From contig VXOF01000009.1 of NCBI GenBank assembly GCA_009840285.1, positions 3 through 64,002 of the forward strand: a stretch of DNA of 64,000 nt, read 5' to 3'. This document shows positions 5,475 through 23,222 of the stretch, piece by piece. Made by a program: the position numbers and the translations under genes. The notes below the pieces were generated by a model that was not told where the DNA came from, searched no databases, and saw nothing but the letters and a program-made list of their open reading frames with translations. Within the stretch, counting starts at the first letter, position 1, and each line of letters begins with the position of its first letter. This DNA comes from Nitrospira sp. SB0662_bin_26. GTDB lineage: Bacteria > Nitrospirota > Nitrospiria > Nitrospirales > UBA8639.

Positions 5475-5945
5475 TTAGAGTTGGGTGGGATTGGGCGCGT
5501 CACCATAGACCTCCTGGGGGTCGAAAGCCTTCTCCATCTCCGTGAATTCCAGCGGCTGGCCGGCCTGGTCGCCAAAGGGCACGGCTCGGTAGAAACAGGA
5601 GCGATACCCTACATGACAACTGGCCCCGCCCTGGACGTCCACGCGCAGCCAGATGCAATCCTGGTCGTCATCGATTCGTATCTCGCGGACGCGCTGCACC
5701 AGGCCACTCGTTGCGCCCTTGTGCCAGAGACACCGTCGACTCCGGCTCCAGTACACGGCTTCGCCCAAGGTGATCGTTTGCGTGAGCGCCTCGGCGTTCA
5801 TGTAAGCATGCATGAGCACTTCACCGGACGAGAAGTCCGTGGTGATGACGGGGATAAGCCCGTGCTCATTGAACTTGGGAGCCAGATCGACGCCTTCCTC
5901 GACCTGCTCGATGCTCTGTCTTTTCGGACAGGGTGAAACACTCAT
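5475..5945 (-). CDS. hisI: Phosphoribosyl-AMP cyclohydrolase (stand-alone HisI)
   Basis: GLIPVITTD...[12 protein letters not shown]...[15 protein letters not shown]...DCD...L.V...[14 protein letters not shown] is the classical HisI signature, with its Cys ligands retained. Confidence 0.9.
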
Positions 5946-5966
5946 TTGCTTGTTCTCCTGGTTGTG

Positions 5967-6113
5967 TCAGTTCGCGAACCTCGCGTCTCGACAGCGATGT
6001 TTTGATGTATCTTGGAACTCACCCGCACGCAGCACGAAGGTGTTGTCATCGAAGAAAAACATCCCGACGACCTCGGCGCCGTGATAGCCGCCTTCGAGTT
6101 GGGGCAAGATCAT
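5967..6113 (-). CDS. 48-aa ORF coupled to hemB (possible DsrE/TusD-like gene fragment)
   Basis: ATGA overlap with the hemB stop. The ORF ends 21 nt before hisI. GAEVVGMFFFDDNTFVL resembles the internal DsrE-family motif. Too short to be a full domain. Confidence 0.3.
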   Translation of the reverse strand: MILPQLEGGYHGAEVVGMFFFDDNTFVLRAGEFQDTSKHRCRDARFAN

Positions 6114-7132
6114 TGTTGCCGGTTGACAGGTGGAACAGAAGCCAGCAGCCTCGTAGCATCGAGCGCACCGTAGGTCACGATCAGATCGGCGCCGGCTCGG
6201 CGCAGAGAGCCGAGCGATTCCAGCAAGACCTCTTCGTATCCGAATGCGCCGGCGGTCGATGCCGCCTTGAGCATGGCGTATTCGCCGCTTACTTGGTACG
6301 CCGCGACCGGAAGCGCCGTATGGGCTCGCACCAGATGCAGGATGTCCAGGTACGGCAAGCCAGGTTTCACCATCAGCCAATCAGCGCCTTCTTCTTCATC
6401 CAGCCGGATTTCCCGCAACGCTTCCCTGTGATTCCCCGGATCCATCTGATAGGTCCGCTTATCGCCGACACGCGGCGCACTCTCCAAGGCGTCACGAAAC
6501 GGTCCATAAAATGCCGAAGCATACTTCACGGCATAGCTGCAGATGCCGACGTGTGGATAGCCGGCCTCATCCAAGGCCCGACGGATCACACCGATCCGTC
6601 CATCCATCATGTCCGACGGAGCTACAAGGTCCGCTCCAGCCTGTGCCTGCACGAGGGCCATCTCTGCCAACAATGGCAGTGTCGCATCGTTGTCGATCTT
6701 TCCATTGATCACCACGCCGTCATGTCCATCCGACGAATAGGGATCGAGTGCCACGTCGCTGAGGACCAGAAGGTCCGGCGCAGCGGCTTTCACTGCGCGA
6801 ATCGCCCTGGCCATCAGTCCCTCCCGGTTGCGACTCTCCCGGCCTCGGGGATCCTTGAGACGATCCGGCACAACCGGAAATAGCGCAATCCCGGCCAGTC
6901 CCGCGCAAGCGGCTTCCGCAGCCTGCTCGACGGCCCGGTCGATCGAGACCCGCGCGCAGCCCGGCATGGAGGCAATCGGGGTCACCAGATCGACCCCCTC
7001 CTGCACAAACAGGGGCCATATCAGATGCTGCGGCGCGAGCCCGCCGATCGATCGTCTCGCTCGAAATGCCGCTCGTGCGCGATGGAGCGGAGGCGATTCG
7101 TCGAGCGAAGTCGGAATCGAACGGAGGCTCAT
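6110..7132 (-). CDS. hemB: Porphobilinogen synthase, Asp-rich (Zn-independent/Mg-type) active-site variant
   Basis: Full-length ALAD similarity. The metal-site motif reads DVALDPYSSDGHDG (DxALDxYxxxGHDG), not the Cys-rich DxCxCxYxxxGHCG. AAGGAG RBS 8 nt upstream of ATG 7132. Confidence 0.92.
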   Translation of the reverse strand: MSLRSIPTSLDESPPLHRARAAFRARRSIGGLAPQHLIWPLFVQEGVDLVTPIASMPGCARVSIDRAVEQAAEAACAGLAGIALFPVVPDRLKDPRGRESRNREGLMARAIRAVKAAAPDLLVLSDVALDPYSSDGHDGVVINGKIDNDATLPLLAEMALVQAQAGADLVAPSDMMDGRIGVIRRALDEAGYPHVGICSYAVKYASAFYGPFRDALESAPRVGDKRTYQMDPGNHREALREIRLDEEEGADWLMVKPGLPYLDILHLVRAHTALPVAAYQVSGEYAMLKAASTAGAFGYEEVLLESLGSLRRAGADLIVTYGALDATRLLASVPPVNRQQ

Positions 7133-7157
7133 TCCCAAAGCTCCTTCACGAGCAGCA

Positions 7158-7331
7158 TCAAACAGTCAGCCGCACCGGCAATGAACATCCAAAACTACTA
7201 AATGAAATGTGTGTTTTCTGGAGACGAGTGTATGACGAACCGGTTTGGTTGAAAAGCACGTGATTCAGCAGGGTCGTCTTGCCCGCCCACAGGAACCCGG
7301 ACAGGACGGTGACGGGGAGCCTCCGTATCAT
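7158..7331 (-). pseudogene. Decayed N-terminal fragment of a COG0523 GTPase
   Basis: [31 protein letters not shown] matches the N-terminus of the intact paralogue ([24 protein letters not shown]). The Walker A Gly is replaced by Trp. Homology stops where the 60-bp repeat begins. ATGA overlap with the upstream gene. Confidence 0.6.
7179..7238. repeat. 60-bp AT-rich repeat, copy A (about 46 nt upstream of the hemB start)
   Basis: caatgaacatccaaaactactaaatgaaatgtgtgttttctggagacgagtgtatgacga. About 55/60 identical to 13901..13960, in the same orientation. Confidence 0.85.
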
Positions 7332-7558
7332 TTTCGACCTTCAGTCATTTCGTCGGCCGCACGACGGAACCAAGCGATCGTTCGCTCAAGATGATCGACT
7401 CCATAGAGCCTCGCAAATTCTCTGGTCTTTGCCTGCTTGTCATCTTGCAATTCAGCCAAGCGTTCTCGGATAAACGCCGGCGTCAACCGGATTTTGCAAC
7501 GGACCTCGATGCAGTTTCGCCATTGCTTGTACGAACTAGGAATGACGTCATCGCTCAT
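7328..7558 (-). CDS. Hypothetical 76-aa protein
   Basis: ATGA overlaps with both neighbours (7555..8253 and the COG0523 fragment). No family recognised. Confidence 0.5.
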
Positions 7559-8253
7559 GGTTGACTCGCTCCTAGGAACGCATTGAAATTGGATGCCACT
7601 CGAAACGACAACTCGCGCCAGGCCGAGGCAAAATTCTCGGCTGGCACGACTGGTCGCGTGCCGTTGTCCCACTCAAGCAGGGTTGATCGTCGGTACTCGA
7701 TCCCCAATTGCTCGACGATGTTTACCTCGTAACGCCACATCCAATCGATCAAATCCAAGGTCAACGTTGCGCACGCATTTCGCTGGGATTCAGTCGGCGC
7801 GTTCAACTTCGGGAGATCGGTATCGGACCAGGGTGGACAATCCAGCGTCGCATGTGTTGTATAGCGAGGTCGAAACTCGGAGCGAGGCAGGAAGACGCCA
7901 CCCCACTGACCATCTCCGTAGAACACACCAAACCCACGCAGCACAACACATCGTCTCCGCGGCATCGCCAAGGCATACACGCTCGCACATTCTTTGCGAT
8001 CGGTGGGCGGCTCAATGCGGTCAAAGCCGATCTCGAGCAGCCAGTTGCCTTCCGGTCGCACAATGTCGCGACCCCAGCACCACACCTGTTGGCTGAGCAA
8101 ACTCACCGCTTGTTCAAGGAGTTCACCTTCAGCATGTTCGTGATCATTCACTTGAAGTGCTACCAACATCTCAGTCAGCCTCGGGAGTCGCAATCGATGC
8201 GATGTTTGCCAACAGCCATGCGGAGGCAGCAAACAACTGCAACCAATCCCCAC
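7555..8253 (-). CDS. Hypothetical protein (start uncertain; alternative Met at 8169)
   Basis: Long open frame on the operon strand, coupled to the downstream gene. No motif recognised. Confidence 0.5.
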   Translation of the reverse strand: MGIGCSCLLPPHGCWQTSHRLRLPRLTEMLVALQVNDHEHAEGELLEQAVSLLSQQVWCWGRDIVRPEGNWLLEIGFDRIEPPTDRKECASVYALAMPRRRCVVLRGFGVFYGDGQWGGVFLPRSEFRPRYTTHATLDCPPWSDTDLPKLNAPTESQRNACATLTLDLIDWMWRYEVNIVEQLGIEYRRSTLLEWDNGTRPVVPAENFASAWRELSFRVASNFNAFLGASQP

Positions 8254-8457
8254 TGGAGCTGATCCCGGAAGTCAGCATGCTGGCAATCCAGCAAACGCTG
8301 GCAGCCGTTTGTCCAAGCCATTCGACGCGCAGCGCCCGTGCTAGTCGGCTTCGCCCCGCGCCAGACGCGATCCCCCTCCTCGCGGCCTCGCTCGTCGCGT
8401 TCGGTCCGCTCGAAGGCGCGGCGAGCGCCCACCGGGCGACCCCTTCGTCGTTCCCCG

Positions 8458-9588
8458 TCAACATACGCACTCCTCCCCACAGCAGGAGAGGTCATCGAGG
8501 TACATGCCCCACTTGCGGTAATTCTCCAACTCTTCAGCCGGCAGCCCCAGGGACCCGGCAATCGCCTTGGCAACCACGGCGAATCGCTGTCGATACTTGT
8601 AGATAAAGCAAAAGGAATGGTTAGCGTGACGCACGGCGGGCCCGCACAGAAACAGGCCGGGCACAATTGTCGACTCATCGTGCTCGCTCATGAGCGGAAA
8701 GCCGTCGTCGCGTCGCTCGAACAAATCTGCGACCAGCTTGTGACTTCCTTCAAATCCACCCGCCCAGAGTGGCGGAACGCGAGTTTGAAACCGGCGTCCG
8801 TCCTGTGCCGTGACTTCATACGTGGCGTCCACGCGGGTGACAGAGGCGATTGGCGTTTCCGGAAACAACTCCACATACTCCTCAAACCAATCTTCTCGCA
8901 TCCGTTCGAGCGAATACGTGGACAGTGCGACACTGGGATCGGAACTTTGGTCTTTCCATGGACAACCTTTATCGAACAACTGTACCCGTTTGTCGCGATA
9001 CGCCAGGTGGTAGGCCGCGTCGACGCCACTCTCGTAGCCACCGACAATGATGAAGTCGTCTCCGTCAAGTTCTTCATAACTGGCAATTGTTGCCGTGTGT
9101 CGACAGAGTTCGCTGCCGACAAACCCATTCAGACGTGGGTATTGGAATTCACCGGCCGCCCAAATGACATGCCTGGCTCGCAAGGCCTCGTCGGCTGTAT
9201 CGATGCGAAAAACGTCGCCAACTTTTGTTATCCGCGTCACGCTGGTCTTCTCGCGTATCGGCAACTCGAAAAACTTCGCGACTCCTCGCAAATGCGACGC
9301 GTATTCCTCGCCCGTCGGATGCTCAACCTCCAAGCTGAACGCGGGCGAAACACCAATCGCGATCGAGTTCAAATCGAGCATGCCAATCGAATTGGTCGGA
9401 AACGAGGGGGTGATGAATCGAGTCTCGGACGGCCATGAGGCAAACGATGATCCGACCGTTCGTCGCTCGAGCACGATAAAGTTCTCAATCCCCGCATGCC
9501 TGAGGGCTATCGCAACCCCCACACCCGCGGCACCGCCACCGACGACTACGACATCGTAAGTCTCGACGTTACTTGCAATCGTCATCAA
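8458..9588 (-). CDS. FAD/NAD(P)-binding oxidoreductase (flavin-monooxygenase/pyridine-nucleotide-disulfide-like) with a Cys-rich C-terminal tail
   Basis: N-terminal dinucleotide fold YDVVVVGGGAAGVGVAIAL...LERR and a second GG motif FIIVGGYESGVDAA. The C-terminus is ...LDDLSCCGEECVC. Confidence 0.8.
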   Translation of the reverse strand: MMTIASNVETYDVVVVGGGAAGVGVAIALRHAGIENFIVLERRTVGSSFASWPSETRFITPSFPTNSIGMLDLNSIAIGVSPAFSLEVEHPTGEEYASHLRGVAKFFELPIREKTSVTRITKVGDVFRIDTADEALRARHVIWAAGEFQYPRLNGFVGSELCRHTATIASYEELDGDDFIIVGGYESGVDAAYHLAYRDKRVQLFDKGCPWKDQSSDPSVALSTYSLERMREDWFEEYVELFPETPIASVTRVDATYEVTAQDGRRFQTRVPPLWAGGFEGSHKLVADLFERRDDGFPLMSEHDESTIVPGLFLCGPAVRHANHSFCFIYKYRQRFAVVAKAIAGSLGLPAEELENYRKWGMYLDDLSCCGEECVC

Positions 9589-9766
9589 GCGCTCCCCTCG
9601 GTAACTTCACTGCGACAACAACCTCACGGACACCCGTAACGGCGGTTCAGCAGGTGAGCGTGAACCGACACGATTCCGCCCGGCATGCGTGAGCACGGCC
9701 TGCCCTTCCTGCGGATAAGCAAACTCGGCGAACATTTCACAAAGCTGTCCCGCGCGCATCATGCCC

Positions 9767-9925
9767 TTACCGCTTTTCTTTGTGGACGGCATGCTTCCGG
9801 CAGTACGAACAATATTTTTTCAGTTCGATCCGGTCGGGATCGTTTTTCTTGTTTTTGGAGGTCCAATAGACCGATTTGCCCGGCGTCTCACATCCGGTGC
9901 AGGCAATGGCAATCGTGACACGCAT
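9767..9925 (-). CDS. rpmG: 50S ribosomal protein L33 (zinc-ribbon C+ form)
   Basis: 52-aa ORF found by hand: [52 protein letters not shown]. Both CxxC pairs are present. AGGAG RBS 8 nt upstream. Lies immediately after rpmB. Confidence 0.85.
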
Positions 9926-9946
9926 ACGCTAAACTCCTGAGGCCCG

Positions 9947-10183
9947 TTAGATGTGTTCACCGGCCGCCCGCATGTCGGCAACGACGCGGGCCAGCCCCTT
10001 TTTATCGATAATTTTCATGCCGTGGGTTGAAACCGACAGGGTAATCCAACGATTCTCTTCCTGCAGAAAATAACGTTTCCGATGCAGATTCGGAAAAAAC
10101 CGCCGCTTGGTTTTGTTATTGGCATGACTCACACGATGACCGGACATAGGCCGCTTTCCGGTGACCTGACAACGTTGTCCCAT
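9947..10183 (-). CDS. rpmB: 50S ribosomal protein L28
   Basis: [34 protein letters not shown]...IDKKGL matches L28. AAGGAGG 7 nt upstream of ATG 10183. Confidence 0.9.
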
Positions 10184-10336
10184 CAACACACCTCCTTAGC
10201 ATCGCGTCAACCATTTAAATGTGAACATTCCCTTTTCTCATGACTCCTGCTGGGAGGCTCCTGCCGTGGCCATGTAGCCTGCCTGTTTTCCCGGCCTGGT
10301 CTTCTAAACGGATCGACAAACGAAGTCCACAACTCC

Positions 10337-11638
<1,302 letters not shown>

Positions 11639-11651
11639 CCGTTATCCTGTC

Positions 11652-12920
11652 CTAGTCTGAGCCTCCGTCGTTTTCTCGTGCATTAGCATGGGAGATCGCG
11701 CGGGCGAAGGGATCGTCGAACCGCCGCCAGACCGACTCCCCCTCCAGTATCTCAGAAGGCGTCAACAAACAGCGGTGAAGTTGACGACGCCAGGACGACA
11801 CATCCAATCGATAGCCGATCCAGCCGAACGCCTGCCGTCGGTCGCCGAACTCGACCGACCAATGCTCTTTCAGTTGTGTTTGGAACTCATTATCAGCCGG
11901 CCACTGAGCCCGGGGAGTGGCCACCCACCAGTCGCCCACACACTCGAAATGCCGCACTCCCGCCGTCTGTTCCAAGGAAAAGCACCGTTCCGGTTGTGAC
12001 GCAATCCAGAAATGACCTTGGCACCGCAGAATTCCCGGCCAATCGGACTCGATCAGCTCCCATAGCCGCTGCGGGTGGAAGGGACGCGTAGCTCGAAAGG
12101 CCCCCATCGCCCAATAGGACGATCGAATCGTCGGCATCGGCGCTCCCTGGATCAGCTTCGCCCAGCCTGGTTGAAAACTGATCGGCATCGAGGCAGGACT
12201 ACGCTCGTTGACAATCTGTCCCACCACATCCAACCCCTCCGCTATCGATAGAATCGTGGCTTCCGGGTTCAACGTCTCGAGCAAGGACCGGAGACGAGCC
12301 TGCTTACCCAATGACAGCCCTTCGGTTTTGGATATCACCAGTACCGTGGCATACTCCACCTGCTCTACCACCAATTCCGACACCATCCGTCCATCGTCCG
12401 TCCCACAACTCACGCCTCGGGTCTGTAAATCGTCTTCAGAATGCAGATCGTCCCATAACGTCCGGCCGTCGACGACCGTGACCAAGTGATCAAGCCACGC
12501 CTTCGATGCCAAGGGTTCGCGGTTCTCCCAGGCGTCGTTGAACACTTCGGCGACCAAGACGGGCTCGACCAGGCCCGAGCACTCGAGCAGCACCCGATCA
12601 AACCGCTGCATGTCGGCAATCGCCGTGATGGCGCTCGCCAAACTGTCGCGCAAGGAACACCCGACACACCGTTGAATCAACTCGGCCAAGACTTCACCGA
12701 GACGGAAGACCTCGATCCCCAGAGATCGACAGAAGTCCGCATCCAATCCTGCGTCGCTACGGTCATGGACCAGCACGGCCAACCGACCGGACGCCCAGCC
12801 GGCGACAACTTTCTGCACCAGCGTGCTCTTCCCGGCTCCGACAAAACCACAGACCGCGGTGACCGGAAGCCGCGTGATCTCGGCTGGACGATAGCCTTTG
12901 GGATGGATACCGGGGTTCAT
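11652..12920 (-). CDS. Divergent COG0523-family paralogue (degenerate CxCC and NKxD motifs)
   Basis: GFVGAGKST is present. The metal motif reads RCVGCSLRD and G4 reads ISKTEG. ECSGLVEP replaces ESTGxxEP. The C-terminal half is collinear with the neighbour (RPFHPQRLW). AAGGAGG lies before ATG 12920. Confidence 0.8.
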   Translation of the reverse strand: MNPGIHPKGYRPAEITRLPVTAVCGFVGAGKSTLVQKVVAGWASGRLAVLVHDRSDAGLDADFCRSLGIEVFRLGEVLAELIQRCVGCSLRDSLASAITAIADMQRFDRVLLECSGLVEPVLVAEVFNDAWENREPLASKAWLDHLVTVVDGRTLWDDLHSEDDLQTRGVSCGTDDGRMVSELVVEQVEYATVLVISKTEGLSLGKQARLRSLLETLNPEATILSIAEGLDVVGQIVNERSPASMPISFQPGWAKLIQGAPMPTIRSSYWAMGAFRATRPFHPQRLWELIESDWPGILRCQGHFWIASQPERCFSLEQTAGVRHFECVGDWWVATPRAQWPADNEFQTQLKEHWSVEFGDRRQAFGWIGYRLDVSSWRRQLHRCLLTPSEILEGESVWRRFDDPFARAISHANARENDGGSD

Positions 12921-12952
12921 AGCACCTCCTTGTTCTTGAGCACGAGCACTCA

Positions 12953-13022
12953 CTACCAGCTCGATTTCCGCACACCAGGGATCCGACCCTGGAGTACGAG
13001 CAGACGAAAATCGATCCGCGTA
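12953..13022 (-). pseudogene. Ghost of an rpsN 3' end (about 70% DNA identity to 13316..13385)
   Basis: My hand alignment gives about 48/68 identical positions to the last ~22 codons of the adjacent S14 gene. The frame is disrupted. Confidence 0.35.
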
Positions 13023-13069
13023 CACTTACCTCCCTACTTCGAGATTGGGGGCTCTAGGCCCTGACTTCA

Positions 13070-13285
13070 TCACTTTTCGGACTGCCGACCGAACGGTAAC
13101 AGCGCCATGTGTCGCGCTCGCTTGATCGCTCGCGCGATCTCCCGCTGCCGATGTAGACTATTGCCCGTCATTCGTCGAGGCAGGATGCGCCCGTTTTCCG
13201 TTATGAACCTCCGCAGCCACTCCGCATTTTTCCAATCCACCGGTGTCGTATCGTCGATCACGCGACGGCGTCGTCCTTCAAGCAT
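13070..13285 (-). CDS. rpsR: 30S ribosomal protein S18 (Cys-less form)
   Basis: ...[42 protein letters not shown] is the S18 core. Contains no cysteine. Confidence 0.85.
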
Positions 13286-13315
13286 GCTCGTTTCTCCATA
13301 TACAATGAATTGCGC

Positions 13316-13621
13316 CTACCAACTCGACTTTCTCACTCCGGGAATACCCCCTCGTAATGCCAACAAACGAAAATCGATGCGGGACATGCCGAATCGTCTC
13401 AGGAATCCACGGGTCCGGCCTGAAATCAGACATCGGTTTCTCACTCGGCTTGGGCTGGCATTGCGGGGCAGCGCCTGCAGCCCCCGTTGCGCCTCCATCC
13501 GCTCTTCCAACGAAGACCCAGGATTTCGGATAACTTCCTTTAAAATGGCTCGTTGTTGGGCGTACTGCTTCACCACCTCTTTTCGTTTTTCATTTTTAAT
13601 GATGCAACTTTTTTTGGCCAT
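13316..13621 (-). CDS. rpsN: 30S ribosomal protein S14, long 101-aa C- (non-zinc) form
   Basis: [15 protein letters not shown]...[41 protein letters not shown]. Lacks the CxxC-x-CxxC of the short Zn-ribbon S14. Confidence 0.9.
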
Positions 13622-13717
13622 AGGACCTTCCTTTCATCAAGGTGTGAAGCTTTCTCCATATCCTCTTTTTGGATAAACGGTTGTTTTGGGTAATTCGTAC
13701 CACAATCTCGACCAACC

Positions 13718-13732
13718 ATTCGTTCAATGAAT
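13718..13732. promoter_or_regulatory. 7-1-7 inverted repeat ATTCGTT-C-AATGAAT (candidate Fur-family/Zur operator) about 100 nt upstream of rpsN
   Basis: Near-perfect palindrome (6/7 per arm) nested between CCAACCA (13712-13718) and TGGTTGG (13741-13747). Lies in an unusually AT-rich leader. Confidence 0.3.
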
Positions 13733-13900
13733 ACGCTAGTTGGTTGGAAATTAAATACAACTGGGCAGCGAGAGAAACGAGTTTATGGGGTGAAAATGAT
13801 TTGAAACGCCAACTGAAAGCTAGCTCACCAGCGATAGTTTCTGCCGTGTATACTTATACGCGGCTTATACGCGGACACTTCGCTTTCATGAATAACTTTT

Positions 13901-14934: not shown

Positions 14935-15369
14935 ATGGAAAAGACCGATAAAGAACTGATGACGATTGGAACCTTAGCCAAGGCAGCCGGGGTTGGGGTA
15001 GAGACGGTCCGCTTTTATCAGAGGAAGGGTCTTCTGGAAATGCCATTTCGAACGTCAGGTTTTCGAAAGTATTCGGAATCTGATGTGCGGACAATCAAGT
15101 TTGTCAAGAGAGTTCAGGGGCTTGGATTCTCTCTCAAAGACGCTCAAGATCTCCTGGACCTTGCTCTTTGTTCCCGGGAAACACGACCTTTTATTGCAAA
15201 GACTTGTCACGAGAAGATCGATCAAATTGAAAAGAAGATAGCCGACTTGACCAGGATGGTGGGAATGCTTCACGAGTTTTCCCTGATCTGTGGAAGTGAA
15301 GCGTCGAATGATTCTGAATGCAGGCTCCTGGATTGCTTTGAAAACAATTGGGAGTGCTGCGAAAAATGA
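14935..15369 (+). CDS. MerR-family heavy-metal-responsive transcriptional regulator
   Basis: MTIGTLAKAAGVGVETVRFYQRKGLL HTH, a coiled-coil dimerisation helix, and a Cys-rich C-terminal loop ...LICGSEASNDSECRLLDCFENNWECCEK. The alternative start ATG 14959 gives the canonical N-terminus. Confidence 0.85.
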   Translation: MEKTDKELMTIGTLAKAAGVGVETVRFYQRKGLLEMPFRTSGFRKYSESDVRTIKFVKRVQGLGFSLKDAQDLLDLALCSRETRPFIAKTCHEKIDQIEKKIADLTRMVGMLHEFSLICGSEASNDSECRLLDCFENNWECCEK

Positions 15370-15382
15370 GGAGGAAAACGCA

Positions 15383-15538
15383 ATGAAAGACTCCTGTGGA
15401 TGCTGCAAAGATGGCAAGTGTGCCTGCAAGACAACGACGTGTGGCTGCTGTTGTGGAACTGAAGTTTGTCGCTGTGACGCGTCATGCGTATGTGGTGATT
15501 GCTGTAGCGGGTGCTGCAAGTCCTCGAGCCGTGTTTAA
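15383..15538 (+). CDS. Metallothionein-like Cys-rich peptide (51 aa, 17 Cys)
   Basis: MKDSCGCCKDGKCACKTTTCGCCCGTEVCRCDASCVCGDCCSGCCKSSSRV. AGGAGG RBS lies upstream. Starts 13 nt after the merR stop. Has CxC/CC/CCC motifs with no His or aromatic residues. Confidence 0.65.
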   Translation: MKDSCGCCKDGKCACKTTTCGCCCGTEVCRCDASCVCGDCCSGCCKSSSRV

Positions 15539-15571
15539 CGGCAACTGAGTTTCAATCTGACGTGGAGGCCA

Positions 15572-16438
15572 TTACTTCGCGGGCATGGGACCGACTAAGA
15601 GCTGGGGATCTATTCGCTGGGTAAAGAGGTTCATCCGCCAATCCAAATGCGGACCCGTCGCACGGCCCGATTCACCCAATTCAGCGATGACGTCTCCTTG
15701 CGTAATATGATCTCCTTTCATTACCAAAATTTTGTTCAGGTGAAGAAACGTGGAGGAAAGACCATGACCATGGTCAAGAATCAAGGTTGCCCCCGAAAAA
15801 AACATATTCGGCTGGGCTAGGGTGACCACTCCACCCGCCGGGGCTTTGACTGGTGTTCCAATGGCCCCTGAAATGTCTACACCAAAATGTGGCCGCCGGG
15901 GCTCACCGTTCAGGATGCGTTGACTACCATAGACTCCGGTTATTTTTCCGATGACAGGCCAGATAAAACCATCCTCAAAATCCGTACGAGGGGCATCCAG
16001 CTTCCTGGCAGCTTTAGCTAGCCGGGCGTCTTCTTGAATTCTGGCAAGATCCCGTTTATGAGGATTGACCTTTCGAGGGGATAGCCCGTTAATGCGCTGA
16101 ATCTTATATTTCCTTTTCTTAACAGACAGAGCACGATGTTCTTTCTTCCCGTTGGGCCAGGTAATTGCGAGCTTCACCGTCGGGGATGCATCTCTCCCAA
16201 ACCCCACCAAAAACATTCCTTGGGGAGATACGCGGACTTTCCGTCCATCTACCCATACTTTGGCCCCCGGAGCAGTCTTGCCTTGAACCAGACCGCCCTG
16301 AACCATCGGGCCCTCCAATGAAAGACTCTCTTGTCCTACCCCTGCCGCCTGAACAGAAACCGCTCCCATCCATCCCAAAGCCAATAAGGACAGAACCCAC
16401 ACCATAGTTTTCAATGACTGTATTTCCATCTTGCCCAC
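15572..16438 (-). CDS. M23/LytM-family zinc metallo-endopeptidase (secreted)
   Basis: Signal peptide, then HFGVDISGAIGTPVKAPAGGVV and ...LDHGHGLSSTFLHL..., the HxxxD and HxH motifs of M23. Confidence 0.88.
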   Translation of the reverse strand: MGKMEIQSLKTMVWVLSLLALGWMGAVSVQAAGVGQESLSLEGPMVQGGLVQGKTAPGAKVWVDGRKVRVSPQGMFLVGFGRDASPTVKLAITWPNGKKEHRALSVKKRKYKIQRINGLSPRKVNPHKRDLARIQEDARLAKAARKLDAPRTDFEDGFIWPVIGKITGVYGSQRILNGEPRRPHFGVDISGAIGTPVKAPAGGVVTLAQPNMFFSGATLILDHGHGLSSTFLHLNKILVMKGDHITQGDVIAELGESGRATGPHLDWRMNLFTQRIDPQLLVGPMPAK

Positions 16439-16591
16439 ACGCGTTTACCTCAGATATCGTTCCGTTCCCTTATCTCCGATATTCTACTGATCTTGTCTGT
16501 TAAGAACCCCATGGGTGCAATGCTCGCTTCCAGGCTAGTGAGGCGTTCTGGAAGAGGGCGAGACGGGGTCAAGCAGGGATCGGAAATGGGG

Positions 16592-16906
16592 TCAGGGCTT
16601 GCCATGTGAATGCCCTCCATGCGACCGGCAATCATGTCCACAGCCCTGTATGCCCAACCCGCCACCGTAAATGTTCTTGAGCGTGGGGGGAGGAGCGGTC
16701 GAGCCCGGTGGAGGATCCGATGACGCCCGGCTTTGGGCCATCACGTCAGCCCCTGCCGAAAACACCGACGGGATCTTCTCCAACGGTGCCCCGCATTCGC
16801 GACAGGCCGTCACCGGGGCATCTTGCATGTTCTGCCAAAAGGCAAACCGCTTGGGACAAAACAGCGATTTCAAACAATATTCGGCTTGATATTCATAGAT
16901 GGGCAT
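16592..16906 (-). CDS. FmdB-like zinc-ribbon protein with a His/Cys-rich C-terminal tail
   Basis: MPIYEYQAEYC...TACRECGAP has the FmdB architecture, with the first CxxC altered to Cx5C. The tail is ...GCGHDCRSHGGHSHGKP. Starts 6 nt after the pyrC stop. Confidence 0.6.
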   Translation of the reverse strand: MPIYEYQAEYCLKSLFCPKRFAFWQNMQDAPVTACRECGAPLEKIPSVFSAGADVMAQSRASSDPPPGSTAPPPTLKNIYGGGLGIQGCGHDCRSHGGHSHGKP

Positions 16907-16912
16907 ACATCC

Positions 16913-18214
16913 TCATTCATCTTGCGTTCTTTGAAACACCGTCACCCCGCCGACCAAGGTCCGGACAACCGCACCGCGAAGTCGCCACCCGGCAAACGGG
17001 CTGTTTCGCCCCTTCGACCGAAACCGTTCCGGATCAACCGTCCATTCCATCCTTGGATCGATCAACACCACATCAGCCTGCGCACCGGCGGCCAACGTCC
17101 CGCACGATAGGCCAAGCAAACGGGCCGGGGCTGACGTCAGTTTTTCTATCATGGATTCCAGGGGCAACAGGCCCTCTTCTACCAGCCGAAGAGAAAGCCC
17201 TAAGGCCGTTTCAAGCCCGACTATTCCAAATGGAGCTTTGGACAATCCCCACTGTTTCTCATAGACGGCATGCGGAGCATGATCGGTGGCTATGGCATCA
17301 ATGGTGCCATCCTGCAACCCGTCGCGGACCGCCTGGACATCCGCATTTCGCCGGAGGGGAGGATTCATTTTCGCCAATGCGCCCTGCTCCCGCACCGCCT
17401 CTTCGGTCAGCATGAAATGATGGGGGCACGCTTCCGCAGTCACCCGAATTCCGGCGGCCTTGGCCGTTCGGACGGCCTCCACGGCATTCGCCGTACTGAT
17501 ATGCGCGATATGCAGATGACATTCCGTTGCCTTGGACAACGCGATATCCCGTTCCACCATCTTGGATTCCGCTTCAGAAGGGATGCCTCGGACTCCCAAG
17601 AGACGGGAAAGGGGCCCCTCGGCCATACATCCGCACCCGGCCAAAGACAGATCTTCGCAATGATCGATCACCGGCAGATCCAAGACCCGAGCCTCCAACA
17701 TCGCCTCTCGCATGACGGCGTGCTCCATCACGGGACGGCCATCATCCGAGACAGCCATACATCCGGCCCCACGTAAGCCCCGAAGGTCTGCCGACTCTTT
17801 CCCTTGTAATCCCTTGGTAATGGCCCCGATTGGATGTACGCGAACCAGCCCGGTAGCCTGCACACGGTCGTGGATGGTCTGGGTCACAGCAGGGGAATCA
17901 TTAACGGGATTGGTATTGGGCATGCAACAGACGGTCGTAAACCCACCGGCAGCGGCTGCAGCAGTTCCGGTCTCGATGGTTTCTTTGTACTCATAACCCG
18001 GTTCCCGTAAATGGACGTGCAGATCCACCAAACCTGGCGTCACAATCAACCCGTCGGCCTTGAAGTGGTCGGCATGCGAGGGAAGAGCCGTCCGGGGAGG
18101 CGTCACCGCAGCGATACGCCCTTGGCTGATCCAGACATCCCCCACACCATTCCACCGTCCAGGGTCGATGACCCACCCTCCTGAGATGATGAATAAGTCG
18201 GCAGGATGGTTCAG
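16913..18214 (-). CDS. pyrC: Dihydroorotase (start uncertain: CTG 18214 or TTG 18289)
   Basis: GLVDLHVHLREPGYEYKETIETGTAAAAAGGFTTVCCMPNTNP and downstream amidohydrolase motifs. There is no ATG/GTG between the ZIP stop and the conserved LFIISGGWVIDP N-terminus. Confidence 0.85.
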   Translation of the reverse strand: MNHPADLFIISGGWVIDPGRWNGVGDVWISQGRIAAVTPPRTALPSHADHFKADGLIVTPGLVDLHVHLREPGYEYKETIETGTAAAAAGGFTTVCCMPNTNPVNDSPAVTQTIHDRVQATGLVRVHPIGAITKGLQGKESADLRGLRGAGCMAVSDDGRPVMEHAVMREAMLEARVLDLPVIDHCEDLSLAGCGCMAEGPLSRLLGVRGIPSEAESKMVERDIALSKATECHLHIAHISTANAVEAVRTAKAAGIRVTAEACPHHFMLTEEAVREQGALAKMNPPLRRNADVQAVRDGLQDGTIDAIATDHAPHAVYEKQWGLSKAPFGIVGLETALGLSLRLVEEGLLPLESMIEKLTSAPARLLGLSCGTLAAGAQADVVLIDPRMEWTVDPERFRSKGRNSPFAGWRLRGAVVRTLVGGVTVFQRTQDE

Positions 18215-18222
18215 GGATCCCC

Positions 18223-19017
18223 CTAGTGCGGGAGCATGGTCAGCATGCCGATGGTCAGCATGCCGGTCAGCATCATGGCAAACGGCCAAGCCCCACTGGC
18301 CGCCCCGTGTCGGCCATGTAAGTCGGGAACCAGATCGGCAAGACCGATATACAAAAAACTGGCGGCGGCCAACGTCAGGGCATAGGGAACGATCGGCTCC
18401 GCATAGGCCAAGCCTCCAAACGCCAACACCACCCCTGCGAGGGTCGCCATACCAGACAGGGTATTGGCCCAAAACGCCTGCCACTGGGAAAATCCGCTCG
18501 ATAGCAGAATGGTGAAGTCACTCAACTCCTGCGGAATCTCATGAACCAGAACCGCCAACGTCGTGACCAGACCCAGGGCAGGGGAGACGACACAGGACAC
18601 GCCGATGGCAATACCGTCGGCAAAGTTATGAACGGCATCGCCGACCAGGATCAATGTTCCGGCTTCCCGGCGAACCATCGAGCCCTTCGCATGCCCGTGA
18701 GGCTTGAGCTCAACAGCCTCCCCGTGCGCATGGCGCCAGATCACCATCCATTCCAGAATAAAGAACAGGACCAGCCCCGCCAACAAAGCGATGCCCGCCT
18801 CATTAATCGAAATGCCTTCGAGTGCCTCGGGAAGCAGCCCGATGGTCGCGGTCGCCAGCATCGTGCCGGTCGCAAACCCCAGCAGATTCGGCATCATCCA
18901 TTGCCGCCACCCATCCGGAATAAACAGAACCAGACCGGCAGGCAATAAGGCGCCCAAGCTGCCCAGTAACCCCATCAAGATGACAAACAGCCATGTGGAT
19001 TCTTGGGGCAGGCTCAC
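18223..19017 (-). CDS. zupT: ZIP-family divalent metal (zinc) transporter, ZupT-like
   Basis: Multi-TM protein with a His-rich loop HGEAVELKPHGHAKG, plus the VHNFADGIAIG and LVHEIPQELSDF signature helices. GTG start. Confidence 0.9.
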   Translation of the reverse strand: MSLPQESTWLFVILMGLLGSLGALLPAGLVLFIPDGWRQWMMPNLLGFATGTMLATATIGLLPEALEGISINEAGIALLAGLVLFFILEWMVIWRHAHGEAVELKPHGHAKGSMVRREAGTLILVGDAVHNFADGIAIGVSCVVSPALGLVTTLAVLVHEIPQELSDFTILLSSGFSQWQAFWANTLSGMATLAGVVLAFGGLAYAEPIVPYALTLAAASFLYIGLADLVPDLHGRHGAASGAWPFAMMLTGMLTIGMLTMLPH

Positions 19018-19080
19018 GCGTTTGGTCCGATCCGGTCAGGGCCACAGACCTGACCATGATACATCGAAACCCCCTCGGTG

Positions 19081-19659
19081 TTAGCCATGTCCATGGACCG
19101 GTGGCCGTTCCTCTTTGACACGTGGCAATAATTCGGTGAGGTTGCAAGGGCGATGATCTATGTCGAGCTGGGGAAGGATGATCTGTTCCATTCCCAAGCG
19201 GCAGGCTCCGGTCGACCCCGGCAGGAGAAACACAATGGTGTCGCCGCACACCCCGGCATCCGCCCGGGATTGAATGGTAGAGGTCCGGATTTCACGGTAG
19301 CTCAGCCAGCGAAATAATTCGCCGAAGCCCGGAATCGGCTTGGAAAACAGCGAACGGACGGCCTCCGGCGTCACATCACGTTGGGTCACGCCGGTCCCGC
19401 CCGTCACGATCACGAATTCAATCGCCGGGTCCGCCACCCAGGCGGCGATCGTTTCCCGAATGGTCTCATATTCATCCGGACATAGTTTGCGGTCGGCCAC
19501 GCGATGCCCCGCGCCCATCAATCGATCGACAATGGTGGATCCACTCGTATCCGTTTCGATCGTTCTGGAATCCGAGACCGTCAAGACCGCCACCGCCACG
19601 CTGAGGCCGGCTCTCTTAAGGTCTGCTGTTGCCGTGGTTGCACCGTCTGCCTGACTCAT
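19081..19659 (-). CDS. moaB: Molybdenum cofactor biosynthesis protein B (MoaB/MogA family)
   Basis: VLTVSDSR...DTSG...[18 protein letters not shown]...[23 protein letters not shown]......F.LPGSTGAC is collinear with E. coli MoaB. Confidence 0.88.
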
Positions 19660-20351
19660 GCCATCACCTCATGGTTCGATAAGATAATCATCCGCGTGCC
19701 GACTCCGCCGTTCTCCCCGAATGACACACGCCGGACGGCCGGAATCCAGATCCCGGCCACCTCCACAAATTCGTTGACATAACTTTCCATCCCGATCACC
19801 GCCTGACCATCCAGCGAAAAGTAGGTCATCACGTAATGACTGGACGCTTGCCGGCCATCCGGGGCGGTGTCGTACCGTTCTATGGTATTCACCCGGCGTT
19901 CGGTCATGGGGGTGATGCGCCCGATTTGCGTATATTGCCGGTTCTTGAGGCGGTACCAGGACTCGAGTCGTCCTCCGGTCAACAGCACACGGCGCCCCCG
20001 GGGATGAGCACAACCGGCATCCTCTTCGGAATCGAAGGATAAGATGTAGCGGCCGTCACCATCCTCAAACGGCGAATAGGCCAAATGCATGCCCTGCGTC
20101 CACAACCGTTCACGCACCCATTCCTGTAACGCCGGATCGGTGCCCGGCAAGTCCACGGTGGTTTCTTTTCGAGGCACCAACTGAACCGTTCCCCGGATAA
20201 TCGTGCCGTTGTCGTTGAGGGTGACGTCGGCTCGATACCCGCCAAACTCTTTGGGCCACTTGTACATCCGGGCATGGGCCTCCCGAACCAGACGTCGCGC
20301 CTCGGGGTCGTCGGTCAGCTTCAGGCCGGTTGCCATTGTTGCGTCAGTCAC
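19656..20351 (-). CDS. Conserved hypothetical protein (resembles the DUF3386 family by recall)
   Basis: [32 protein letters not shown]... The start overlaps the upstream stop (GTGA) and the stop overlaps the moaB start. Confidence 0.55.
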
Positions 20352-20668
20352 GCCGTTTCCCGCCTCTCCGATACATCGTGGCTTCCATCATCATGATGAT
20401 GTTCCCCATCCTGCGCCAGGGCTTGCACATCCGGTTGCGTGACCTCCTCCGCCGTTTTATGAATCTTGAACTGGGTCGTCTTTCCCGGCCCTTCCAAAAA
20501 CGCAATGACCGTTTCAATGGGCGGACAACCTGGCTCCCGGCACTCCAATTCGGTCACCATGACCGTGGTCTCTTCCGGCAAAGACCAGGCCGAACGAGCC
20601 CAGGATTTGATGCGATCCGCCTGATCCGGATTGATGCGGGGGCGCCCTCCTCCGAATAAATTCATCAT
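20348..20668 (-). CDS. Small 106-aa protein with an ELECREPGCPPIETV motif and an acidic His-rich tail
   Basis: Coupled at both ends (ATGATGA with the WD40 stop). C-terminal ...QDGEHHHDDGSHD. No family recognised. Confidence 0.55.
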   Translation of the reverse strand: MMNLFGGGRPRINPDQADRIKSWARSAWSLPEETTVMVTELECREPGCPPIETVIAFLEGPGKTTQFKIHKTAEEVTQPDVQALAQDGEHHHDDGSHDVSERRETA

Positions 20669-21732
20669 TTCTCTCCCACGCCTTCCACGACAAAGAGCGC
20701 CACCGTTCCGTCATCGGCGCCCACCGCCAGGCAGACATCGGTCGGACTCCAGGCCACACAGGACAATCCTCGCGACACACGCAGTTCCTGACTCACCCTG
20801 GGCTTCGCCTTCCCTGGCTCCCACAAGCAGAGCAACCCGTCTTCTCCCACCGTCGCCACCACCCGCTGACGAGGGTGACAGGCAATTGCTTGAATCCATC
20901 CCAGATGGCCGCTCAAAAGCCGGCCACTGGATCCTTCGAATTTTTTGGCCGACCACGCCACCAAATCAGGACCGGCTGCTGTCCATAAAAATTCTCCATA
21001 AGGATCGAAGACCACATGCCCGACCTTGCAGGGATAACCGGCCATATGCCAGTTCTGCCCGGTCGAGAGACTCCATAAATGGACCGACCCGTCCAAATTT
21101 CCCGCGGCCAGATACTGCCCGTCCGAACTGATTGAGAACGACAGGAGTGCCCCATCATAGGGAAACGTATTCACGGGAGAATCCATCCCGACCTGCCACA
21201 GCGTAACTCCTCCGAAACAGGAGGAAAAAATTTGGCCCGGATACCCCTTTCGCCAACAAAGATCGGATATAGAACTCTTATGATCAGAGGTCTCCCATTC
21301 CACGGAGCACCCGCCCGACTCCGACCACTTCAGGATCTGCAGGGTTTTTCCCGCGGTCATCGCCAACCGTTCGCCGCCGGACTCCCACGCCAGATGCTCC
21401 ACCCAGCCCTTTCCATCTTCAACCGGAACCACGGCACGCTCTTCCCCGGAACCGACGTCCCACACACGCCCCACTCCGTCTTCCCCGGCGGTTGCGAGAA
21501 TTTTTCCTCCGGGATGCCATCCCTCCGCCAGTACCGCGCCTTGATGGTTCGTGTTACGGAAGACACACTCCTGGGATCCCACATGCCACACCGCGACCTG
21601 GCCGCTCGCATCCGCAACTGCCAATCGGCTGCCGTCCGGCGAAAACATGACGGCATGGATGTATTCATCCAATTGAAACGTCCCGATCGACTGCAATTGA
21701 ATTTTGGCCCGAGGCCGTACTAAACGAGGCAT
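20665..21732 (-). CDS. WD40-repeat beta-propeller protein
   Basis: Repeated ...GH...V..V.FSPDG..LA....DG.V..W... units across the whole ORF. The MPRLVRP start overlaps the COG0523 stop by 13 nt. Confidence 0.8.
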
Positions 21733-22691
21733 GTCCGAAACCCTTCGACGAGCCGGTCCCGATCGAGGTTGCGCCCTATGAACACCAACTGATTCCCCCT
21801 GGTTTCTTTGGCCCTCCATGGCCGATCAGGACGCCCGTCGAACAACATATGCACGCCTTGAAATACAAAACGTTCATCCCGTCCCTTCACATCCAAAATA
21901 CCCTTCATGCGAAAAATGTCGGTGCCCATGCCCGAGAGCACGTCCCGAAGCCAATCATTCGTCCGAGCCTCATCCACCTGCCCTGGTTCGGCAATCGACA
22001 CGGAGTAGACCGACGGATCATGCTCGTGGGCTTCCTCGCCTAAAAAGTTCGGGTCGATTTCCAGTTTCCGGCCCAGATCAAAAGCCCCCACATTCAACAG
22101 GCGTTCGATGTCCAACCGGGCATCGCGGGTCCGGTAGATTTTGGTCATGGGATTGATGGCCCGCACGCGGGCCTCCAGTCGCTCCACCTCCCCTTCGTCC
22201 ACCAGATCGATTTTATTCAGGAGAATCACGTCCGCAAATGCGATCTGCTCCTTGGCTTCGGGACTGGTGTCCAGATGCTCCCAGATATGCTTGGCATCCA
22301 CCACCGTCACAATGGCATCCAGCATCAACCGGCGCTTCATATCATCGTCTACAAAAAAGGTTTGTGCGACGGGTGCCGGATCGGCCAGCCCCGTGGTCTC
22401 GATGACCATATAGTCGAACCGCTCTTTCCGCTTGAGCAAATTGGAAATTATCCGGATCAGGTCTCCGCGAACGGTACAACAGATGCACCCATTGTTCATT
22501 TCAAAGATTTCTTCCTCCGCCCCCACCACCAACTGATTATCAATTCCGACTTCACCGAATTCATTCACAATCACCGCCACCCGTTTCCCATGCTCGGTGG
22601 TCAGAATACGATTCAACAAGGTTGTCTTGCCCGCACCAAGAAATCCCGTCAACACCGTGACCGGGACTTGAGCCTGCTCTTCGACTTTCAT
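21720..22691 (-). CDS. COG0523-family G3E GTPase (short YciC/ZigA/YjiA-like zinc metallochaperone type)
   Basis: [40 protein letters not shown]4 LLNKIDLV, and a His-containing linker GEEAHEHD. The start taken is MKVEEQ. Confidence 0.9.
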
Positions 22692-22905
22692 ACTTGCCCC
22701 CTTTTTTGTTCGAACATTTTCCCGGCGCGACCGATCCCGCTTATCCCCGCCTCCGGAACGGGCGGTCCGTGCGATTCCTAAAACTTTTACCCTGGGACTC
22801 CCACGGGTAATGGTGAGTCTTACCCGGACGGCGAAGCGAACATGAATCGCTTCGGAACTGAAGCAAACTGGTGAGTTAAACTTAGCCGAATACACGAAAA
22901 CGGCA

Positions 22906-22918
22906 ACGAAATTTTCAT
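22906..22918. promoter_or_regulatory. AT-rich near-palindrome ACGAAATTTTCAT (candidate Fur/Zur-type box) in the 530-bp divergent intergenic region
   Basis: 10/13 self-complementary. Resembles the TGAAAAT-n-ATTTTCA class. Lies about 215 nt upstream of the COG0523 start. Confidence 0.25.
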
Positions 22919-23222
22919 GAACGGTCTAATTGTTTCCTCGATCCTCCCCTATACGGTTATGAAACAGTCTATTCTGTTTTTCTTCTCCCGGCTGCAAACA
23001 GGGGAACCTGTGCGCCCAAGAGAATGAATGAGACAGGAGAAGACATCTATTGCAAAAACGTCATGGGTTCGATAGCGGGCACGACAGCAGTTTGCGATCG
23101 ACAGACGGTTTTCCTGTAGCCCTTTCGATAGGAATGCTGCTACTATGGTTGCCGGCTGTGGGTCTAGAGTAGCAAAAAATCCAGCATTCGTTTGACCGAC
23201 GAGAACTGAAAGGGGTGGGGAG

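Follow-up and report, generated by a model that had tools for sequence, protein, structure and literature searches.

A run of about 27 genes in the 64,000-nt stretch of Nitrospira sp. SB0662_bin_26 DNA analysed here (contig VXOF01000009.1; the window, below) probably constitutes a zinc-homeostasis supercluster that serves mainly the response to zinc limitation. The cluster extends over about 19 kb (~3587-23220), includes three intact genes for COG0523 GTPases, and recurs within the order Nitrospirales, where matching gene sets were found in at least 12 independent contigs, so that the clustering is not due to chance. Association lends good support to the zinc-limitation reading, and the cluster is a large, strain-variable instance of an already well-known cluster type, not a new type.

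An earlier note on this DNA, made from its letters alone, had described an almost uninterrupted minus-strand run at 5475-22950. The minus-strand run stands, with two amendments. It is broken by a plus-strand pair encoding a MerR-family regulator (14935-15369) and a 51-aa peptide (15383-15538), and its left border lies at ~3587 rather than 5475, because genes for ParA-like, CO_dh-like and 79-aa proteins recur in the cluster of relatives; in all of the relatives' variants, homology to the window stops at 3509-3587. The genes named in that note (HisI, HemB, three COG0523 genes, S18, S14, M23, PyrC and ZIP) were all recovered on the minus strand with Pfam and NCBIfam, the decayed COG0523 copy is real, and sequence reading bears out a Cys-less S14 of the 101-aa long form, a Cys-less S18 and an Asp-rich HemB. 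The theme of zinc sparing and acquisition holds for the ZigA-type COG0523 protein, HemB, S14, S18, L28, ZIP and M23, and is qualified by HisI, PyrC, M23 and L33, which keep their metal ligands. Beyond the genes listed earlier, the cluster comprises L28, L33, MoaB, DUF3386, WD40, a His-tailed 105-aa protein, two FmdB-like proteins, a flavoprotein-u97-u204-u76 module, the ParA-like/CO_dh-like/79-aa genes and an S14 remnant.

Re-annotation was based on open reading frames (ORFs), Pfam, NCBIfam and gene calls from an identical metagenomic contig (L001), and ligand and motif states were read directly in the protein sequences of the window, which is the DNA in view for the source genome. Bit scores are given with the cut-off of the respective model, which is the NCBIfam equivalog cut-off for ZigA, ZupT and HemB. 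Homologues of the third COG0523 protein were sought in species-representative genomes and those of S14 in metagenomes, and a homologue search with L33 yielded only 26 candidates. Loci of relatives carry L numbers, among them L004 (uncultured Nitrospirales chromosome OX638327.1), L005, L006 and L008 (Nitrospira genomes), and L164 (the planctomycete Gimesia aquarii, CP037920.1). Genes lie on the minus strand unless otherwise indicated, and the intact COG0523 genes are numbered COG0523-1 to COG0523-3 from the left.

The core operon

The right-hand part of the cluster is a core operon with the order COG0523-WD40-His-tailed protein-(COG0523)-DUF3386-MoaB-ZIP-PyrC, common across Nitrospirales and kept in L004-L008, L085, L088, L092, L166 and L168. 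Its first gene, COG0523-3 (21720-22691), encodes a 323-aa protein with a GCICC motif and the Pfam domains cobW and CobW_C. The top NCBIfam match, PRK11537/YjiA, falls below its cut-off (247 against 361 bits), which makes the protein YjiA-like, and the closest solved structure is that of E. coli YjiA (1NIJ). Identity reached 97% in L004, ~80% in Nitrospira metagenome-assembled genomes and ~70% in more than 70 cyanobacteria; by sequence, COG0523-3 is a member of an orthologous group common to Nitrospirales and cyanobacteria.

The gene for a WD40 beta-propeller protein (20665-21732; Pfam WD40) comes immediately after the COG0523-3 orthologue both in Nitrospira and in the majority of cyanobacterial loci, and the cyanobacterial pair often has an Asp-rich HemB, HisI and further COG0523 genes close by. 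The 105-aa protein that follows (20348-20665) found zero matches in Pfam, NCBIfam and the PDB. It contains the motif CREPGC, has a tail that is acidic and rich in His (GEHHHDDGSHD), and is probably metal-binding; Nitrospira keeps it behind WD40 (59-71% identity), and some cyanobacteria have it in the vicinity of WD40. The DUF3386 protein (19656-20336; PF11866), for which a PDB sequence search returned nothing, is a constant member of the core operon in every Nitrospirales locus, and the molybdopterin-related MoaB (19081-19659; TIGR02667, 236.5 against 222.4 bits) holds a conserved position there.

A ZIP-family metal importer (18223-19017; Pfam Zip, 1.7e-36) reaches only 67.5 bits with the ZupT equivalog model (cut-off 252). 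PyrC (16913-18145; TIGR00857, 423 against 279 bits) keeps the metal ligands HxH/D/HC/H/D in DLHVHLR, SDDG, DHCED, HIAHIS and ATDHAPH, and on this reading of its motifs is an ordinary type-I dihydroorotase, free of the ligand loss of the PyrC2 type. An FmdB-like zinc-ribbon protein (16592-16906) with Cx5C...CxxC and a Cys/His-rich tail matches Zn_ribbon_8 and TIGR02605, both below cut-off; the FmdB-like gene comes after L33 in the Nitrospira loci L087, L088 and L092.

The region upstream of the core operon (22692-23222, minus strand) is divergent from a YCII gene, and no operator was recognised in it. A 60-nt stretch just upstream of the COG0523-3 start (22710-22769) recurs with 92% identity at L085 8337-8396, between S14 and the flavoprotein operon, and no significant RNA structure was detected.

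Alternative ribosomal proteins and COG0523 GTPases

Ribosomal proteins S14, S18, L28 and L33 are encoded in the middle of the cluster together with two COG0523 genes. S14 (13316-13621; NCBIfam NF006477) is the long, 101-aa form without CxxC, S18 (13070-13285; Pfam, TIGR00165) has no Cys at all, and L28 (9947-10183; Pfam, TIGR00009) is a C- form with a single Cys and no CxxC. The zinc-ribbon Cys residues have been lost from these three proteins, and likewise in relatives, but not from L33 (9767-9925; L001 gene call, NCBIfam L33), a C+ form with both zinc knuckles (CTGC and CSYC) that are also present in L087, L088, L091 and L092.

About 700 nt of non-coding DNA sits upstream of S14. In the metagenome scan, S14 matches with at least 65% identity were all in the zinc cluster, as in L088 and L092 with the order PyrC-u79-S18-S14-COG0523-COG0523-L28-L33-FmdB-like, and matches with at most 61% identity, which are canonical S14 genes of the long form, were in the L24-L5-S14-S8-L6 (spc) operon. 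This S14 clade is confined to the zinc cluster and never occurs in the spc operon. A repeat search in the window also recovered an S14 3'-end remnant between S18 and COG0523-2 (12953-13018; repeat family D5, 71% identity to 13316-13381).

COG0523-1 (10337-11638) has the P-loop GAGKT, the GCICC motif, the cobW and CobW_C domains and 630.4 bits with NF038288 (cut-off 600), as expected of a ZigA-type GTPase. COG0523-2 (11652-12920; Pfam cobW and CobW_C) has an intact P-loop and the sequence RCVGCS, in which CVGC (CxxC) replaces CxCC. With 331 bits in the ZigA model, it is to be classed by sequence as a divergent ZigA-like paralogue, not a ZigA equivalog. A 75-aa degenerate FmdB-like protein (14323-14550), weakly matched by TIGR02605, has lost the first CxxC and carries a C-terminal CSCC; its gene occurs in L168, not in L085.

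Zinc-related enzymes and accessory modules

HemB (6110-7138; NF006762, 437 against 297 bits) is Asp-rich and has no Cys ligands; its motif, DVALDPYSSDGHDG, matches the zinc-independent signature DxALDPx4GxDG rather than DxCxCx7C. Cyanobacterial HemB proteins encoded beside COG0523 belong to the same motif class, whereas other HemB copies have DTCLCEYTSHGHCG. The stand-alone HisI (5475-5945; NF000768, 154.6 against 126 bits) keeps its three Cys ligands in DQDC, ASCH and RSCF. The secreted M23 (LytM-type) peptidoglycan endopeptidase (15572-16438; Pfam Peptidase_M23) has intact HxxxD (HFGVD) and HxH (HGHG) motifs and, in the long ORF, a signal-peptide-like N-terminus. Its scores are 54-64 bits with the ShyA/ShyC models (cut-off 700) and, at best, 137 bits with a Pgp3-like model (cut-off 300), and its gene is not in the L004 or L168 clusters.

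The flavoprotein-u97-u204-u76 operon (7328-9588) begins with a Pyr_redox_3 flavoprotein (8458-9588; Pfam) ending in CCGEECVC, followed by u97 (8171-8464), u204 (7555-8169) and u76 (7328-7558). The module adjoins COG0523 in several phyla. In marine Planctomycetota its proteins are 63-83% identical and always encoded beside COG0523; in Gimesia aquarii identity is 83% for the flavoprotein, 72% for u97 and 63% for u204, and the order at L164 5338-10578 is COG0523-flavoprotein-u97-u204-u204 paralogue-COG0523. The 83%-identical planctomycete flavoprotein indicates, as far as sequence comparison goes, cross-phylum transfer of a COG0523-linked module. In L165, u204-u76, COG0523, znuACB and CDF genes lie inside 10 kb. 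The 447 homologues of u204 gave no family assignment, and a Foldseek search of its AlphaFold model (predicted local distance difference test score, pLDDT, 66.8) against the PDB gave no match with E <=0.001.

At the left end stand a ParA/MinD-like ATPase (4787-5386; Pfam), a CO_dh (PF02552)-like protein (3864-4490; Pfam), for which a PDB sequence search again returned nothing, and the conserved 79-aa Cys-containing protein u79 (3628-3867). The trio, or a pair of its genes, was found in L004, L085, L091, L168 and L169. A small hydrophobic protein with a His/Asp-rich stretch and C-x-W-x2-H, not found in the window, recurs in the zinc clusters of relatives: at L091 7324-7590 after u79, at L005 453-773 and L006 9458-9775 after a Fur-family gene, and at L165 ~20250-20560 before a porin-znuACB operon.

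The decayed COG0523 copy consists of a 32-aa P-loop N-terminus (7331-7236, minus strand; repeat family D2). Its start overlaps the u76 stop (ATGA), it resembles the 5' ends of COG0523-1 and COG0523-3, and it is truncated by the second copy of a 61-nt direct repeat (family D4, 93% identity between copies). Copy 1 (13901-13961), in the S14 upstream region, is kept in L085 and L168, and copy 2 (7179-7239), which precedes HemB, is window-specific; the repeat may be a scar left by recombination, or a promoter region that was duplicated. Relatives contain more COG0523 remnants: L004 has a CobW_C fragment (15778-16116) and a GCVCC fragment (16384-16596), and in L165 a P-loop fragment follows u76 at ~10839-10910. 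Judged by these fragments, the same COG0523 paralogues are repeatedly decayed among relatives.

The plus-strand module (14896-15538) is oriented opposite to the cluster. Its regulator has the Pfam domains MerR_1, with the helix-turn-helix, and MerR-DNA-bind, and a C-terminal Cys, and scores below cut-off with the NCBIfam MerR, ZntR and CueR models. The 51-aa peptide contains 17 Cys and is metallothionein-like in composition, with no family match. They are preceded by a promoter of the ZntR/MerR type, CTTGACTCTGTACTGAGGTACGGAGTGTATACT (14896-14928, plus strand), in which TTGACT and TATACT are separated by a 20-nt spacer with the dyad CTCTGTAC-N4-GTACGGAG, the spacer length of this promoter class being 19-20 nt. 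The module is present in L084-L086, and L168 retains just an inverted 85-nt fragment.

Variation among relatives

Relatives with 90-95% DNA identity show at least four structural variants of the cluster, represented by the window, L004, L085 and L168. In L004 the FmdB-like gene is followed by the CO_dh-like gene, and the DNA corresponding to 4600-16590 of the window is missing, its place being taken by two COG0523 remnants. L085 has M23, MerR/metallothionein, S14 and the flavoprotein operon, and is without S18, COG0523-1 and COG0523-2, L28, L33, HemB, HisI and ParA. L168 has nearly everything except M23, MerR/metallothionein, COG0523-1 and u76. The alternative ribosomal set varies accordingly, with S14 only in L085 and S14-S18-L33 in L166. 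The 4.6-16.6 kb part is accessory and exchanged, and the core operon is kept throughout the order. The accessory state of this part, with the blocks of S18, L28, L33, HemB and HisI absent from the cluster in the ~95% identical L004 and L085, suggests that these genes are unlikely to be the sole copies in the genome.

The designation as a genomic island, proposed earlier, may suit the accessory 4.6-16.6 kb, which is variable in close relatives, and does not suit the conserved core operon. In favour of a mobile island are the variable presence, the flanks, which differ between the window, L004, L085 and L168, the RNA genes next to the cluster (ffs in the window, a truncated ffs and tRNA-Ser in L004) and an AlpA-like gene at 2847-3083; against it, no integrase and no flanking repeats were found, the deviation in GC content is not clear, and the core operon is conserved. 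The cluster in the window adjoins ffs, the signal recognition particle (SRP) RNA gene, which is intact (23640-23739, plus strand) and is followed by dnaX. L004 has a truncated SRP RNA gene at 7931-8031, in which the first ~57 nt and 22 nt upstream are kept and the rest has diverged. This copy scores 27 bits, below the gathering score; its chromosomal surroundings are not those of the window's ffs, and a tRNA-Ser gene is found at the opposite end. A second ffs fragment and island-flanking repeats were searched for, and none was found.

Regulation

Control of the cluster by Zur in this lineage is something we infer from orthologous loci. A TGATAATNATTATCA-like Zur box precedes 58 of the 74 cyanobacterial COG0523-3 orthologues, mostly 35-50 nt before the start codon, against a background rate of 0.10 such boxes per 410 nt. 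The COG0523-3 orthologue of L005, L006 and L008 is immediately preceded, on its own strand, by a gene of the Fur family (PF01475), and Fur-family genes adjoin zinc clusters in Nitrospirota (PMC10957091). The promoter of the Fur-family gene (TTGACA-17 nt-TAAAT) contains a palindrome, AATGCAA-N5-TTGCATT, that overlaps the -10 element; in L091, the CO_dh-u79-S18-S14 operon is preceded by this palindrome, followed again by TTGGAAAT, in a promoter of the same layout. The candidate operator is located at L005 20-50, L006 9025-9055, L008 9050-9080 and L091 6389-6407. Its presence at two independent promoter types is suggestive, and only suggestive, of an operator in Nitrospira.

Other signals were sparse. 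Enumeration of AT-rich palindromes over the whole window gave no recurring motif, and comparing 12 intergenic regions each with every other brought out nothing but the 61-nt repeat; 14-of-16 matches were as frequent as expected by chance. Rfam searches over 1-24000, at gathering and E-value thresholds, returned the SRP RNA only and no riboswitch, cobalamin riboswitches included. Leader folding gave no structure signal (z = 0.30 for COG0523-3 and z = -0.96 for S14), and a scan for sigma-70 promoters and terminators gave the same counts as shuffled sequence.

Several candidates were set aside. An actinobacterial-type Zur site at 13791-13805, with 2 mismatches, is not conserved in L168, and the TGTTCGAACA palindrome before COG0523-3 occurs once, below chance expectation. 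Alignment of the COG0523-3 upstream regions was uninformative, L004 being too similar and Nitrospira too diverged, and the composition of the L165 organism is too different for its znuACB upstream region to serve as a motif source.

Comparison with known zinc-responsive systems

Zur-regulon COG0523 clusters with zinc-enzyme paralogues and a WD40 linkage (subfamily 5), as well as HisI paralogues with retained ligands, were described by Haas et al. (2009, BMC Genomics 10:470). As in their clusters from Pseudomonas, Cupriavidus and others, a cell-wall hydrolase gene and paralogues of HisI, PyrC and HemB accompany COG0523 here, the HisI paralogue with its ligands intact and HemB devoid of the Cys ligands. 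The present PyrC keeps its ligands, unlike Pseudomonas PyrC2, in which they are lost (Haas et al. 2009). The cluster further differs in its Nitrospirales host, its ~27 genes and its three intact COG0523 genes, in the absence of FolE2, DksA2, Cam, QueD and tRNA synthetase paralogues, and in having no recognised Zur box.

The mycobacterial alternative ribosomal protein (altRP) operon has the COG0523 protein Mrf as a neighbour. The operon itself, consisting of S14-2, S18-2, L28-2 and L33-2, is controlled by Zur (PMC5912738). In the window, too, genes for these four ribosomal proteins are clustered with those for COG0523 GTPases, and S14, S18 and L28 are likewise without zinc-binding Cys. In contrast to the mycobacterial operon, L33 keeps both CxxC motifs, two COG0523 genes lie inside the set, the gene order is different and varies among relatives, and scores with the MRF model are below cut-off.

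ZigA of Acinetobacter baumannii is linked to the histidine ammonia-lyase HutH. COG0523-1, which resembles ZigA in passing the equivalog cut-off and in its motifs and domains, has ribosomal proteins as neighbours instead. ShyB is a Zur-regulated M23 endopeptidase of Vibrio cholerae, and the window likewise has a secreted M23 protein with intact catalytic motifs in a zinc-limitation context; here, however, the gene is accessory and its product far below the ShyA/ShyC cut-off. The E. coli zntA promoter is the model of ZntR/PzntA-type MerR regulation, to which the MerR module corresponds in the C-terminal Cys of its regulator and its dyad promoter with the 20-nt spacer. The target differs, being a 51-aa Cys-rich peptide and not an efflux ATPase, and the metal-specific models are below cut-off.

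The Anabaena Zur regulon includes the HemB-type gene all4725 and COG0523 genes (PMC10957091; Haas et al. 2009), a situation similar to that of the Asp-rich HemB near COG0523 in the window. Cyanobacterial loci share the ~70% identical COG0523-3 followed by the WD40 gene, many of them with HemB, HisI and COG0523 close by; the TGATAATNATTATCA-like box of the cyanobacterial genes is, by contrast, missing from the Nitrospirales cluster.

A full-text search of the literature found no paper on the Nitrospira version of the cluster. All component classes and the COG0523-WD40 link have nonetheless been described before (Haas et al. 2009; the altRP operon; the Anabaena Zur regulon), and the cluster is not as unusual as the earlier note had held, given that every class and the WD40 linkage it contains are found in Haas et al. 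and that S14, S18, L28 and L33 are the altRP set. The differences from known clusters are compositional, namely its size, the C+ L33, the CxxC-variant COG0523, the embedded metal-excess module and the conserved uncharacterised genes.

Nitrite is oxidised by Nitrospirales in wastewater plants as well as in oceans and soils, and little is understood of how a shortage of trace metals limits nitrifiers. The locus supplies a zinc-stress marker set for the order and shows a zinc response that is partly accessory and exchanged between lineages and phyla. Its conserved uncharacterised genes offer candidate partners or clients for the COG0523 metallochaperones, few clients of which are known so far. 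The locus leaves the concept of the Zur-type regulon unchanged, and its main value lies in the strain-level modularity and the uncharacterised COG0523-linked modules.

Proposed function and alternative explanations

In the proposed response, a drop in zinc would lead a Zur-like Fur-family repressor, encoded elsewhere in the genome, to release the operons. Zinc would be taken up via the ZIP transporter, and the scarce metal would be allotted by the COG0523 GTPases, that is, the ZigA-type protein, the divergent CxxC variant and the YjiA-like protein with its WD40 partner. Zinc proteins would be swapped for zinc-free forms (Asp-rich HemB and Cys-less S14, S18 and L28), and extra copies of the metal-requiring HisI, PyrC and secreted M23 would be provided, probably as chaperone clients. 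DUF3386, the His-tailed protein, MoaB, the FmdB-like proteins, flavoprotein-u97-u204-u76 and ParA-like/CO_dh-like/u79 would be co-expressed as accessory proteins. The ZntR-like MerR and the metallothionein-like peptide would deal with metal excess, the condition opposite to that of the cluster.

Several observations weigh against this account. The window has neither a zur or other Fur-family gene by tblastn, in agreement with the earlier note, nor znuABC. That note's assignment to a Zur-regulon type gains from the cyanobacterial boxes and the Nitrospira Fur-family neighbour and loses from the lack of any operator in the window: five Zur consensus types (cyanobacterial, actinobacterial, Bacillus, gamma- and alpha-proteobacterial), which may not be those of this lineage, and the Fur box were not found at promoter positions in the window and the Nitrospirales loci, and AATGCAA-N5-TTGCATT, relaxed versions included, is absent from the window, and the palindrome is absent from L004 and L085 as well. 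The Nitrospira Fur-family protein is not assignable to Zur, as no NCBIfam equivalog model passes its cut-off, and a Nitrospirota Fur-family protein was likewise not callable as Zur by sequence (PMC10957091). L33 is of the zinc-ribbon form and the ligands of HisI, PyrC and M23 are kept, which means that part of the cargo spends zinc and does not spare it. Primary hemB, hisI, pyrC, rpsN, rpsR, rpmB and rpmG were not seen in the 64 kb in view, and PyrC, a conserved member of the core, could be the sole genomic copy.

A more far-reaching view can be put forward only tentatively and with considerable doubt. The locus would then be a recombination-prone 'zinc economy' site, and its conserved uncharacterised members would be new components of a COG0523-based allocation of metal, with a remodelled ribosome and a new Zur operator. 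Such members may be flavoprotein-u97-u204-u76, ParA-like/CO_dh-like/79-aa, the FmdB-like proteins, DUF3386 and the His-tailed protein. The zinc-binding L33 and the CxxC-variant COG0523 may point to ribosome remodelling with chaperone-assisted zinc insertion, and AATGCAA-N5-TTGCATT may be a new Nitrospirota Zur operator controlling the cluster in Nitrospira.

The structural variants described above would also be expected if the locus had grown by mosaic accretion at a hot spot of recombination or horizontal gene transfer, without common regulation and with only some modules, for example the core operon, responding to zinc. The COG0523 and S14 remnants, the duplicated 61-nt repeat and the inverted metallothionein fragment in L168 fit this explanation, as do the 83% identity of the flavoprotein module to a planctomycete one, the separate promoter of the MerR module and the 12 intergenic regions without a shared operator. 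It is nevertheless unlikely, as the varying modules are zinc-themed themselves and recur together in the distant Nitrospira loci L088, L091 and L092, and as one candidate operator type serves both the altRP part (L091) and the Fur gene heading the core (L005, L006 and L008).

Ribosome remodelling or hibernation, in which COG0523-2 would act like mycobacterial Mrf and recruit a hibernation factor to ribosomes with alternative proteins, is a less probable explanation still. The order S14-S18-COG0523-COG0523-L28-L33 mirrors the mycobacterial altRP operon with its GTPase, the MRF model is the second-best NCBIfam match of COG0523-1 and COG0523-2 (226 and 157 bits), and the zinc ribbon kept in L33 means that plain zinc sparing cannot explain the whole set. 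Both MRF scores are, however, far under the 375-bit cut-off, COG0523-1 passes ZigA instead, and no gene for a hibernation factor was seen in the cluster; the idea moreover refines the zinc-limitation model rather than opposing it.

It is very improbable that the zinc theme is coincidental and the genes are housekeeping copies or a cobalt/B12 (CobW) cluster, for although PyrC, HisI and L33 look like normal metal-binding versions, primary copies were not directly observed and the COG0523 proteins give sub-threshold CobW matches, these matches (82-218 bits) fall short of the 332 bits required while ZigA passes its cut-off, there are no cob genes and, in the Rfam results above, no cobalamin riboswitch, S14 is never in the spc operon, close relatives have clusters that lack blocks with genes of essential type, and Zur boxes precede the cyanobacterial orthologues.

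Flanking and other features of the window

Just outside the cluster, 2004-3083 (minus strand) encodes an AlpA/HTH_17 excisionase-like protein (2847-3083) and a 276-aa protein. This flank is common to no relative and may be the end of an integrated element. Also to the left of the cluster, a 185-nt stretch (3247-3431) is 91% identical to L004 8534-8718, which lies between the YCII gene and the COG0523-3 upstream region.

A dispersed repeat of ~90-135 nt, with 93-95% identity between copies, occurs in the window at 37874-37917, 38075-38168, 42842-42960, 53965-54100 and 60155-60288 and at L085 12860-12946. With its hairpin core CTTTTGCC-N2-AACAAAAG, it resembles repetitive extragenic palindromic (REP) sequences or miniature inverted-repeat transposable elements (MITEs), and it creates spurious N-terminal extensions of ORFs, for example of proS. 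The intergenic DNA next to prfC contains an almost perfect AT-rich palindrome, TGTAATTACTTTATAATTACA (28901-28921).

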